Positions 38,169-41,616 are shown, counted from the first letter of the stretch. The stretch is 56,039 bases of DNA from Thermodesulfobacteriota bacterium (GCA_035319625.1 DATHCH010000303.1:1-56039), one strand, 5' to 3'. The notes: a model not told the origin generated them from the letters alone. Numbers and translations: made by a program.

Positions 38169-38300
38169 AATTGTCGAAGGTGATGGTTATCAGTATATAT
38201 GGATATCAGGTAGTGAATATCGGGGCATCAGGTTCAGAAATTTTGATCTTCTTTCATCCCGATCTCCTGGTACCCTGGTATCCTGCATCCTGATTTCCTG
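38169..38300. repeat. word-repeat hairpin (ATCAGG / CCTGAT, CCTGGTA words)
   Basis: GGTGATGGTTATCAGTATATATGGATATCAGGTAGTGAATATCGGGGCATCAGGTTCAG - loop - CCCGATCTCCTGGTACCCTGGTATCCTGCATCCTGATTTCCTGGTACCCCGAT. Confidence 0.6.
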
Positions 38301-38453
38301 GTACCCCGATTAACTCTCAGGAATAGTTCGGATTTCGCCTGCCTTCGTCCCGAAAGGCGGGACTACACGCAGGCAGGTGCTTCGAATTTAGATTTTGTTG
38401 ATATTTTAACAAGGTTGTGATATTGGAGAGGCGAGAGCTTCTCTGGAGGACAC

Positions 38454-39821
38454 ATGATGGAGAAGAAAGTCCTCGTCGTGGATGATGAGGAGAGCGTTGT
38501 TCAATCGATTGAGGGTGTTCTGGAGGACGAGGGGTTCCGAGTCGCCAAGGCAAAGAGCGGAGAAGACGCGATTAAGGTTTTCCAGGAGGAGGAACCAGAC
38601 GTTACCCTCCTCGATATCTGGTTGCCGGGGATGGATGGCATAGAGGTGTTGAAACGATTCAAATGGATAGCCCCGGAGTGCCAAGTGATCATGATCTCCG
38701 GTCATGCAACGATCTCAACGGCCATGACCGCCGTGAAATTAGGCGCTTTTGATTTTATTGAAAAGCCTCTTTCTCTTGATGTTCTTCTTATGACGATTTA
38801 TCGAGCCCTCGACCATCAGAAAGAGTTGGCCGTGCAGAGATCGGGAGAAATTGTCACAGAGGAATCCTTCCAGGGCAAGAAGATCTTTCCAAAGGAGGTG
38901 GCCGGAGAACTCCTCGGTCCCCCTCCTGATCCCATCCGGGAGGCTATCCCCTTGGCCATGAAGGATTCAAAGAGAAAGGGGATTTCTTTATTACCTCAGC
39001 GTACCCTGAAACAGAGCATGGTGCTTTACGGGACAGGGCTTTTTTCTGGAAAGAAGACAGGGCTTCTCCTCCAACCCCTACCCCCCCATAGCGGCATCCT
39101 TTTTGGAAATGTCTCGTCGGACGAAGTGGTGCCCGCCCATGTCGATTATGTCGAGACGACGGAATTCGCCACTTCTCTGAAGAAGGGGAGAGCCATTGCC
39201 AGGACGGTCGAGCACCTCATGGCCGTGTTACACGCCTATCGTATCACCAACTTAATGGTAAAAATGATTGAAGAGATTCCGGTGATGGACGGTTCTGCTT
39301 TGGAGTTTTGTAAGATTGTGGAAGAGGCGGGCGTGGAGGAACAGGAGGAGAAGGTGGACGAATTGGTCATCGATCGAAGGCTGGAGACCGTCCACAAAAA
39401 TAAATCCCTGATCGTCGAGCCTGCCGACATCTTCTCTGTCCACTTCTTTTTGGACTATCCTCCTCCCATCGGGCAGCAGACGTTGGACTTTGTCTTAGAG
39501 GACGAGTCGGCCTTTAGGGATCAGATCGCTCCGGCGAGAACCTTCGGCTTTGTTAAAGATGCGGAGATGCTTGGACGGATGGGAAGATTGGGGGGTGGGC
39601 GACTCCATAACTTTATCCTGGTTGACGAGGAGAAGATCGTCAACACCGAGCTCCGGTTTCCCGACGAATTTGTACGGCATAAGATTCTTGACCTGATCGG
39701 CGATTTCTATCTCCTCAACCGTCCGATTCGAGGAAGAGTGACCGCCCATTTGACCGGCCACACGGAAAATATCACTCTCATGAAGAAGATTCAGGAAGCG
39801 GCAAGAGAAGAGGAGCGATAA
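38454..39821 (+). CDS. lpxC: response-regulator receiver domain fused to UDP-3-O-acyl-GlcNAc deacetylase (REC-LpxC)
   Basis: REC: VVDDEE, phospho-acceptor LLDIWLPGMDG, MISGH, FDFIEKP. A ~70-aa linker follows. LpxC: TVEHLMAVL, HKILDLIGD and TGHTEN, so the Zn ligands and catalytic His are conserved. Confidence 0.88.
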   Translation: MMEKKVLVVDDEESVVQSIEGVLEDEGFRVAKAKSGEDAIKVFQEEEPDVTLLDIWLPGMDGIEVLKRFKWIAPECQVIMISGHATISTAMTAVKLGAFDFIEKPLSLDVLLMTIYRALDHQKELAVQRSGEIVTEESFQGKKIFPKEVAGELLGPPPDPIREAIPLAMKDSKRKGISLLPQRTLKQSMVLYGTGLFSGKKTGLLLQPLPPHSGILFGNVSSDEVVPAHVDYVETTEFATSLKKGRAIARTVEHLMAVLHAYRITNLMVKMIEEIPVMDGSALEFCKIVEEAGVEEQEEKVDELVIDRRLETVHKNKSLIVEPADIFSVHFFLDYPPPIGQQTLDFVLEDESAFRDQIAPARTFGFVKDAEMLGRMGRLGGGRLHNFILVDEEKIVNTELRFPDEFVRHKILDLIGDFYLLNRPIRGRVTAHLTGHTENITLMKKIQEAAREEER

Positions 39822-39936
39822 GGGATCGCACTCGATATTCTAACGGCGATAGCTTTTGTCAATGTCCCGAAGCGGAGTGGCGAAATGATCAATGGTGTTT
39901 TTATGCGACGCTGAGGCCTACCCTTTGGAGGGAAAA

Positions 39937-40302
39937 ATGGCACAGGAAGAATACCGACCCCCGATCAAAGAATTTTTGGATATGCTGGCTGACCTGTTGG
40001 CAGAGAAGTATTTTGAACGGATGGACGACCGGATGAAGAAGATTCCCGAACTCCGGAGATTGATTACTGCCAAAGAGGCGAGCCAGTACTTGAGCCTCTC
40101 GACAGACACGGTCTACCGAATGGCCTCCCTGAAAAAACTCCCCTACCTCAAAATTGGGGACCGGGTTCTTTTCGATGTGAAAGCCCTCGACCACTGGATT
40201 GAGAGAAATATGATCCGCGAGAAAGGGTGGAAGAGGGAAGAATTGAAGCCGTCGAAAGAATCTGACCTCCCCGGTCTGCTGAAGAAAAAGGGAAAAGACT
40301 AA
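39937..40302 (+). CDS. helix-turn-helix (excisionase/MerR-type) DNA-binding protein
   Basis: LITAKEASQYLSLSTDTVYRMASLKKLPYLKIGDRVLFDVKALDHWI. GGAGGG SD. Confidence 0.7.
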   Translation: MAQEEYRPPIKEFLDMLADLLAEKYFERMDDRMKKIPELRRLITAKEASQYLSLSTDTVYRMASLKKLPYLKIGDRVLFDVKALDHWIERNMIREKGWKREELKPSKESDLPGLLKKKGKD

Positions 40303-40340: not shown

Positions 40341-40400
40341 ATCAATGCATCACCTCTTGATGAAGGGTCATTGAAGCGCGTAAACAAGGGAGTGAGAAAG

Positions 40401-41616
40401 ATGGTGGATTATTTTCAAGTGGAAGGATTGCTGAATGAAGAAGAGAAAAGGTTCAGGGACAAGGTCCGAAGATTCGTGGATGAAGAATGCATGCCCCTTA
40501 TTGCCACCCATTTCGATAATGGAACCTTTCCCATGGAACTCATTCCCAGAATGGCGGAGATGGGACTTTTCGGCCTCCATGTGGATGGCTACGGATGTAC
40601 CAGATCAAACCATACGATTTATGGCTTGATCTGCCAGGAGCTGGGCCGGTGTGATAGTGGTCTCAGGGCCATGTTTTCAGTTCAAAATTCCTTGGTGATG
40701 TATCCCATCTATGCCTTTGGATCCGAAGAGCAGAAATCAAGGTGGCTTCCCAGGATGGCACGAGGTCAGGCCATCGGCTGTTTCGGTCTCTCCGAACCCG
40801 ATTTCGGATCGAATCCTTCTGGAATGGAGACGCGAGCCGTAAAGCAAGGAGACCATTACCTCCTCAATGGAACCAAGATGTGGATTACCAATGGGTCCGT
40901 TGCGAGTGTGGCACTGATTTGGGCGAAAATAGATGACGAAATCCGGGGGGTCCTGGTAGAAGCTGGGACTCCGGGATTTCAAGCTCCCCTGATCCAGAGG
41001 AAGTTCTCTTACCGAACCTCTCCCACTTCCGCCCTGATGTTCAAGGACTGCAAGATTCCCGAAAAAAACCTTCTCCCGGGAGCCAAGGGCTTGAAATCGG
41101 TTTTGAGCTGCCTGAACTATGCCCGGTACGGGGTCGCTTGCGGCGCCTTAGGCTCCGCCATTGCCTGCTACGAAGCCGCTGAGGCCTTTGCCCGCCAAAG
41201 GAGGGTCTTTGAAAAACCCGTCGCCTCTTAATCAGCTTGTCCAGGAAAAGCTGGTGAGGATGGTATTGGAAATTACGAAGGCGCAGTTGCTCACCTTTCA
41301 TCTAAGCAGATTACTGGATCGGCATCAAGCGAGACCTCCCCAGATCTCGATGGCCAAGCTGAACAATGTTCGGGAAGGGATGAAGGTCGCTCGTGCGGCC
41401 AGAGACATCCTCGGGGGCCGGGGGATTCTGGCCGATCACCATGTCATCCGCCATCTCTGTGATCTCGAGGCCGTGAGCACGCTGGAGGGAACGGAGAGTA
41501 TTCATACGCTGATCACCGGACAGGACCTGACCGGAATTTCAGCCTTCTATTTAGGATTTTTTCGGCATGTGTCGCCATCCCAGCTTCTCTCTGTTCTTCT
41601 CTCTGTTTTTTCTTGA
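40401..41616 (+). pseudogene. glutaryl-CoA dehydrogenase-like acyl-CoA dehydrogenase with a single +1 frameshift
   Basis: Two track ORFs (40371-41231, 41161-41616) join as ...RQRRVFEKPVAS | NQLVQEKLVRMVLEI... An extra T lies in the TCTTAA run near 41227. GCFGLSEPDFGSNP and VIRHLCDLEAVSTLEGT motifs are intact. Confidence 0.8.

Follow-up and report, generated by a model that had tools for sequence, protein, structure and literature searches.

The stretch of DNA analysed here, hereafter called the window, comprises 56,039 nucleotides from a Thermodesulfobacteriota bacterium (GCA_035319625.1 DATHCH010000303.1:1-56039) and contains a gene in which a response-regulator receiver (REC) domain is fused to LpxC, the UDP-3-O-acyl-N-acetylglucosamine (UDP-3-O-acyl-GlcNAc) deacetylase of lipid A synthesis. 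The receiver is of NtrX type, and the fusion protein, the only LpxC found in the genome, is proposed to be a response regulator whose output is the deacetylase itself. The features of the gene are:

38445..38449, plus strand: Shine-Dalgarno sequence GGAGG, read directly in the sequence, with the ATG 4 nt further on
38454..39821, plus strand: REC-LpxC fusion gene, a single open frame of 455 codons and a stop
38469..38795, plus strand: receiver (REC) domain of NtrX type, residues 6-114 (Pfam PF00072, E 6.8e-31)
38613..38615, plus strand: codon of the predicted phospho-acceptor Asp54 (D54 at least 90% conserved in 32 fused proteins)
38847..38987, plus strand: flexible linker, residues 132-178 (predicted local distance difference test score (pLDDT) of ~25 in AlphaFold2; ratio of non-synonymous to synonymous substitution rates (dN/dS) 0.34)
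38889-38912, plus strand: PKEVAGEL stretch in the linker, residues 146-153 (aligned to the HTH_8 helix of P0129 and P0136)
38997..39794, plus strand: LpxC (UDP-3-O-acyl-GlcNAc deacetylase) domain, residues 182-447 (Pfam PF03331, E 4.5e-80)

The open reading frame (ORF) at 38454-39821 encodes 455 amino acids without a stop or frameshift. Response_reg (PF00072) matched with 107.2 bits against a cut-off of 30.2, and PF03331 with 269.5 bits against a cut-off of 27, the latter over profile positions 1-267 of 268. The NCBIfam model TIGR00325 (lpxC) scored 231.8 bits (cut-off 187.25) over profile positions 3-276 of 297. No AAA+ domain and no HTH_8 match was found in the protein with Pfam. The protein ends 8 residues past the Pfam LpxC domain in a charged tail, and has no C-terminal non-polar degron tail of the E. 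coli LpxC type. The AlphaFold2 model (pLDDT 82, predicted template modelling score 0.80) has two confident domains. Its pLDDT is 76-96 over residues 1-120, helix alpha5 of the receiver reaches about residue 131, and the value is ~25 over linker residues 131-176. Some 65 amino acids (~65 aa) separate the two domains, and the flexible portion is ~45-65 residues. A prediction of the complex between REC (1-135) and the LpxC domain (177-455) gave a score of 0.00, which, obtained without controls, weighs neither way on binding.

The original prediction had described a complete receiver, with its acidic pair, phospho-acceptor Asp, Ser and Lys, joined to an LpxC domain that keeps its Zn ligands and catalytic residues (TVEHL, HKILDLIGD, GHTEN), and all the motifs it quoted are present in the right alignment columns. 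In the receiver, D10, D11, D54 (LLDIWLPG), S82 (MISGH), F101 and K104 (IEKP) form a canonical receiver site, with F101 as the aromatic switch residue. In the enzyme, E253/H254 (TVEHL), T363/F364, H409/K410/D413/D417 (HKILDLIGD) and H436 (GHTEN) occupy the Zn-ligand and catalytic positions of the P. aeruginosa LpxC structures. The equivalents of the E. coli Zn ligands H79, H238 and D242 are H254, H409 and D413, and those of the catalytic E78, H265, T191, K239 and D246 are E253, H436, T363, K410 and D417. The best match in the Protein Data Bank is P. aeruginosa LpxC (E about 3e-48).

Conservation of these residues, counted over 32 short fused proteins with 31-96% identity, extends to both halves of the protein. 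In REC, D11, S82, K104 and P105 are the same in every protein; D10 and D54 are kept in at least 90% of them. In LpxC, E253, H254, H409, K410, D413, D417, H436 and F364 are invariant, T363 being at least 90% conserved. Seven orthologs, from the genus and family of the window, gave a median dN/dS of 0.070 for REC, 0.057 for LpxC and 0.34 for the linker (residues 123-178). A REC value as low as that of the enzyme argues against the receiver being a decayed relic. The LpxC domain is predicted to be catalytically competent, and probably is.

The fusion recurs on hundreds of independent contigs, and no hidden frameshift or stop was found between the domains. A database cluster of 53 members matches the window protein at 100% identity, and orthologs with 83-96% identity share both Pfam domains. 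In more than 120 database clusters, with 83-100% identity and from independent samples, both domains lie within one ORF. The window's family (Syntrophorhabdaceae-like) was sampled with 24 genomes from 11 genera, all of which carry a fusion copy, with 68-97% identity; in 22 of the 24 the copy is one intact full-length frame. Many of these genomes are 95-100% complete and one is assembled in 2 contigs; a second LpxC is listed in none of them. The closest relatives are Syntrophorhabdus-like metagenome-assembled genomes (MAGs) with 77% identity. Two same-genus orthologs are damaged: one (G008:C50:81088-82454) lies in two frames, with the break at about residue 210, and the other (G011:C128:4269-5636) has one in-frame TAG, each of which may be an assembly error or a real pseudogene.

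A second family in the same class carries the fusion at 54-56% identity to the window protein. One genome of this family has two paralogous REC-LpxC genes, at G033:C1:1532771-1534129 and 1662119-1663477 (L030 and L031), both with a conserved coiled-coil-like gene of ~230 aa just before them that matched no Pfam family above threshold. The survey of REC-LpxC architectures proposed with the original prediction found fused-clade LpxC in about 103 of the 401 genomes of an even sample of the phylum (counting matches at E <= 1e-66, nearly all of them in frames of 417-840 aa). Almost all the fusion-bearing genomes of this sample have one LpxC locus; one (G344) clearly has a stand-alone copy as well. 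Full-length fusions are also found in Syntrophobacteraceae, Candidatus Binatia, Candidatus Acidiferrales, Nitrospinaceae/Nitromaritima and Candidatus Entotheonellia, so that the spread includes other phyla. These carriers are all uncultured, and their proteins are annotated just as LpxC or 'NtrX'. On the evidence of these sequences, the fusion is real and old.

The window is contig C303 of a MAG of 3.5 Mb in 313 contigs, which is 84% complete with 6% contamination. REC-LpxC is the only LpxC match in this MAG, and the suggested check for a second, stand-alone lpxC also revealed none among the matches listed for 31 relatives carrying the intact full-length fusion. As had been predicted, the gene lies outside any lpx/fab cluster: lpxD, lpxA and lpxB are together on contig C57, apart from the REC-LpxC gene, which has an aldehyde dehydrogenase gene and a gene for an HTH_17 protein as neighbours. 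Judged from this pathway context, REC-LpxC probably serves as the cell's lipid A deacetylase.

The ancestry of the receiver can be followed in the gene order of relatives. The best NCBIfam match of the window REC is NtrX (121.9 bits). In unfused relatives of the same class, the order is lpxC-DUF4390-ntrY-ntrX, where the kinase has NtrY_N, HAMP, PAS, HisKA and HATPase domains and ntrX encodes a sigma54 regulator. At stand-alone lpxC loci, the kinase starts 275-1,333 bp downstream of lpxC in 27 of 28 cases, and an NtrX-type REC then follows in 26 of 28; at one locus (L079) the kinase is present and no REC was found within 600 bp. In the unfused relative G039, a Ser/Thr protein kinase with PEGA domains follows the lpxC-DUF4390-ntrY-ntrX operon (L027 9240-11078). 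Between the window REC and the REC of the response regulator that lies ~3 kb from lpxC in the unfused relatives, identity is 56-61%, compared with 37-45% for paralogs. In the REC tree, a clade with a Shimodaira-Hasegawa-like approximate likelihood ratio (SH-aLRT) support of 91 unites all 21 NtrX-type RECs with 42 of the 54 fused RECs, including that of the window, and contains none of the 37 other RECs from the window's own genome.

Intermediate architectures were recovered by an exhaustive search for representatives, clustered at 50% identity. A long form, REC-sigma54 AAA+-lid-LpxC, has 650-736 aa and was represented by 15 complete clusters in the top 150; a REC-HTH_8-LpxC form has 491 aa, with HTH_8 detected in P0129; and the short form, REC-linker-LpxC, has 412-505 aa and was represented by 21 clusters. 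The long forms occupy the exact ntrX slot, DUF4390-ntrY-[REC-AAA+-lid-LpxC]. None of the 17 long forms examined retains, in its AAA+ module, GAFTGA, the Walker B Glu or the arginine-finger motif 'REDLY', so sigma54 activation is no longer possible. Nearly all fused forms fall on one side of the LpxC-domain tree (66 sequences, SH-aLRT 84), where long and short forms are interleaved, with strongly supported long/short sister pairs; this implies that the AAA+ module was lost repeatedly. A trace of the intermediate stage may be seen in the window linker, in which the 8-residue PKEVAGEL is aligned to the helix of HTH_8 in P0129 and P0136, relatives of the REC-HTH_8-LpxC form. The LpxC domains of two short REC-LpxC proteins, P0152 and P0155, cluster with the stand-alone P0177 and P0197 (99*), outside the main fused clade, which may reflect an independent fusion event or a misplacement.

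The profile match, the REC tree and the gene order identify the window REC as derived from the NtrX-type regulator of lpxC. An NtrX-type sigma54 regulator, encoded beside lpxC as in the relatives, would have been fused N-terminally to LpxC, after which its AAA+ and DNA-binding parts would have decayed and then been deleted; in the window's family, the fused gene would later have moved away from the kinase gene. By its profiles, the window protein is a member of both the LpxC family and the receiver superfamily; it derives from the NtrX-type sigma54 activators and is no longer one of them, since it is without the AAA+ and HTH domains.

The search for a cognate kinase, which the original prediction had called for, produced an NtrY-type candidate inferred from gene order in other lineages. 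At short-form loci of these lineages, a full-length NtrY-type kinase gene ends 45-442 bp upstream of REC-LpxC on the same strand in 12 of 17 cases. No kinase gene adjoins REC-LpxC in the window or in its genus. The genus has kept a full-length NtrY-type kinase, 54-56% identical to that of the unfused relatives, with no response regulator adjoining; in G010 it is located between an RNase H gene and smpB. G038 has likewise kept such an orphan kinase, flanked by unrelated genes. In the second fused family, 4 of the 5 genomes have an NtrY_N kinase, located on other contigs. No NtrX ortholog was detected in four fusion-bearing genomes, where the best matches (45-47%) correspond to the paralog background, compared with 81% in an unfused relative. 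The NtrY-type kinase is the obvious candidate partner because it was kept without its transcription-factor partner and an NtrX-type receiver is attached to LpxC. In the MAG of the window, a protein search located the N-terminus of the kinase (56% identity) and its C-terminus (51% identity) at the ends of contigs C213 and C71. Pfam NtrY_N had no match in this MAG, where the kinase gene is interrupted by an assembly break, and the absence of a DUF4390 match there is uninformative, as the control likewise found none anywhere. Frames of 1,007-1,423 aa in G146, G178 and G112 that resembled kinase-REC-LpxC triple fusions were rejected: these are high-GC genomes, and the kinase is in another frame. 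The three genomes have a kinase followed by a separate short REC-LpxC.

We therefore propose, with a probability of roughly three in four, that the sole and catalytically competent LpxC of this bacterium is built as a response regulator, and that LpxC is tuned directly through phosphorylation of D54 by an NtrY-type kinase. The kinase would be the membrane-bound histidine kinase with the order transmembrane region-HAMP-PAS-HisKA-HATPase, which is an orphan in the window's lineage, and phosphorylation of D54 would change the output of LpxC. The narrower version, that the kinase acts directly on catalysis by the sole LpxC of the cell, switching it through the attached receiver, is also favoured, with somewhat less confidence. 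As to the direction of the effect, there is a slight and weakly grounded lean towards phosphorylation raising rather than lowering LpxC activity, because the phosphorylated ancestral sigma54 activator would have increased lpxC expression and because regulators of the CheB type, in which a REC is joined to an enzyme, stay inhibited until phosphorylated.

Several points weigh against this proposal. Phosphorylation of D54 and its effect on LpxC activity are both deduced from sequence. The kinase is unlinked in the window's family, where the pairing is suggested by ancestry and by there being no other NtrX-type partner, and the MAG of the window itself has only the kinase fragments at contig ends. 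The long-form loci of Nitrospinaceae are without a kinase in the 6 kb fetched upstream (1.3 kb, to the contig end, at L063). Twelve divergent fused RECs were not resolved in the REC tree, and the key clades have moderate support (SH-aLRT 84-91), from quick trees built on short alignments. In the enzyme, His19 of E. coli LpxC (GxGLHSG motif) is Phe197 in the window protein; the equivalent residue is H in most fused relatives and otherwise F, Y, Q, M or L, varying even between close fused orthologs. One fused representative, P0139, has Asn as its acceptor residue (LLNIWLP), and may be a pseudo-receiver variant. Finally, a LapB-type homolog is present in fusion-bearing genomes, so proteolytic control could coexist with phosphorylation as an extra layer.

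The last of these points leads to the strongest alternative, a minority possibility in our estimate, that the receiver sets the amount of LpxC, its phosphorylation changing how readily a protease (FtsH/LapB, Lon or ClpXP) degrades the protein, and not its catalysis. Phosphorylation is coupled to proteolysis by RssB and CpdR. Such control would retain the regulated turnover known from E. coli and place it under two-component command. The disordered linker of 45 residues could be a protease entry site, and homologs of a protein with tetratricopeptide repeats (TPR) and a LapB zinc ribbon were found, full-length and with 34-35% identity over ~residues 5-439, in the fusion-bearing G010, G004 and G038. 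Proteolysis is, moreover, known to control LpxC in several proteobacteria (reviewed in PMC12444477). Against this, the fused LpxC is without the C-terminal tail that bears the E. coli FtsH degron, the TIGR00325 match stopping at 276 of 297; no LapB-type match was found in G026, of the second fused family; and no link was found between the REC and any protease. A loss of LapB in the fused lineages, taken from a census of PF18073, was considered and rejected. The PF18073 match examined in G010, from the window's genus, is RadA, and the family also matches Gram-positive controls; a full-length search of relatives showed that G010, G004 and G038 have a full-length homolog, with 35% identity to a protein verified as LapB-type.

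It is improbable, and distinctly more so than control by proteolysis, that the receiver is a constitutive structural or dimerisation remnant which leaves LpxC unregulated. The Asn at the acceptor position of P0139 would fit such a remnant, as would the separation of the kinase gene from REC-LpxC in the window's family and the decay that did overtake the remaining parts of the ancestral regulator (AAA+ and HTH). However, the full phosphorylation quintet is retained across several phyla, the dN/dS of REC is low like the enzyme's, the orphan NtrY-type kinase persists though its transcription-factor partner is gone, and the kinase is still immediately upstream at 12 of the 17 short-form loci. That assembly or gene calling produced the fusion artificially, or that the gene is a pseudogene, with the real LpxC in the unassembled 16% of the MAG, can practically be dismissed: the incompleteness and contamination of the MAG and the damaged copies in G008 and G011 would allow it, but the fusion is found in the more than 120 independent clusters and in all 24 family relatives, 22 of them intact and including the 95-100% complete genomes and the 2-contig assembly, with no second LpxC listed, and both the REC and LpxC halves are under purifying selection.

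The surroundings of the gene in the window contain some further features. No GG-N10-GC sigma54 promoter match was seen upstream of REC-LpxC, by reading the sequence by eye without a formal scan. The intergenic region 5' of the gene contains several near-repeats of tcctggtaccc/tcctggtatcc (38240-38310), which may be an operator or a repeat element. The product of the next gene 3' of REC-LpxC, at 39892-40302 on the plus strand, has 136 aa and an HTH_17 domain of the excisionase/MerR-like kind. An acyl-CoA dehydrogenase gene at 40371-41616, also on the plus strand, is broken by a frameshift into two overlapping ORFs, one (40371-41231) coding for the N-terminal and middle domains and the start of the C-terminal domain and the other (41161-41616) for the remaining C-terminal domain; the cause is either a sequencing error in this MAG or decay of the gene to a pseudogene.

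To our knowledge, the known forms of LpxC control are regulated proteolysis (by FtsH/LapB/YejM in enterobacteria and by other proteases elsewhere) or transcription. Direct two-component control of the enzyme, if true, would be a third logic beside these, and would be the normal mode of lipopolysaccharide (LPS) regulation in about one in four Thermodesulfobacteriota-type genomes, as well as in members of several further phyla. The fusion would also be a natural 'Rosetta stone', tying NtrY/NtrX, which is poorly understood and linked to the envelope in alphaproteobacteria, specifically to LpxC, and living lineages would preserve each step by which a transcription factor became a regulatory domain of its own target. 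REC-LpxC is widespread among uncultured bacteria and visible in databases, and, as far as was found, it is apparently undescribed in the open-access literature: explicit names were searched and no paper on a REC-LpxC fusion was found, which, in open-access literature only, is not proof. Direct control of LpxC by a sensor kinase is probably likewise undescribed, no paper describing such control having been found in that literature. A 2025 Journal of Biological Chemistry review on lipid A regulation cites the NtrYX work, and the words 'receiver', 'fused' and 'fusion' are absent from it (PMC12444477).

Among known systems, the closest is NtrY/NtrX, including DVU2931/DVU2934 of D. vulgaris. The NtrX-type REC is common to both, in many lineages the fused gene fills the ntrX slot just after the NtrY-type kinase, and lpxC is the common target. 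DVU2934, a sigma54 response regulator in an operon with the kinase DVU2931, had lpxC as its single target in DNA-affinity-purified chip (DAP-chip) analysis, binding only upstream of lpxC, and in S. fumaroxidans lpxC is directly upstream of the orthologous response-regulator operon (Rajeev et al. 2011, PMC3333781). Loss of NtrYX in Rhodobacter alters lpxC expression and LPS, the ΔntrYX strain having 8.8-fold more lpxC mRNA and increased LPS (Lemmer et al. 2020, PMC7240162). NtrX, however, is a transcription factor (REC-AAA+-HTH), whereas the window protein is without AAA+ and HTH and has LpxC itself as its output, and the kinase gene that is linked there is unlinked in the window's family. The GAFTGA-bearing AAA+ domain, the HTH_8 and the position after an NtrY-type kinase, which characterize sigma54 activators of the NtrX/NtrC family, are all missing from the window gene.

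With the stand-alone LpxC of E. coli, P. aeruginosa and A. aeolicus the window protein shares the full-length fold and profile, the Zn ligands and the catalytic Glu, His, Thr, Lys and Asp. It differs from them in its N-terminal receiver and linker, in having no E. coli-type degron tail, in the Phe in place of His19, and in the position of its LpxC domain on a distinct branch with nearly all fused forms (SH-aLRT 84). Another natural LpxC fusion is LpxC-FabZ (NF009667, PRK13188), to which the window protein matches in the LpxC part with 198.7 bits against a cut-off of 465. LpxC and FabZ compete for the same acyl-acyl carrier protein (acyl-ACP) precursor. LpxC-FabZ joins two enzymes, with FabZ C-terminal, whereas the partner in the window protein is a signalling domain and N-terminal. 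In CheB methylesterase, the PleD/WspR diguanylate cyclases and the RpfG HD-GYP protein, a linker connects a REC to an enzyme and the REC gates the enzyme's activity, and this arrangement of REC, linker and enzyme is a design principle common to them and the window protein. None of them has an output in lipid A or envelope biosynthesis, whereas the output in the window is an essential housekeeping enzyme, present as the only copy.

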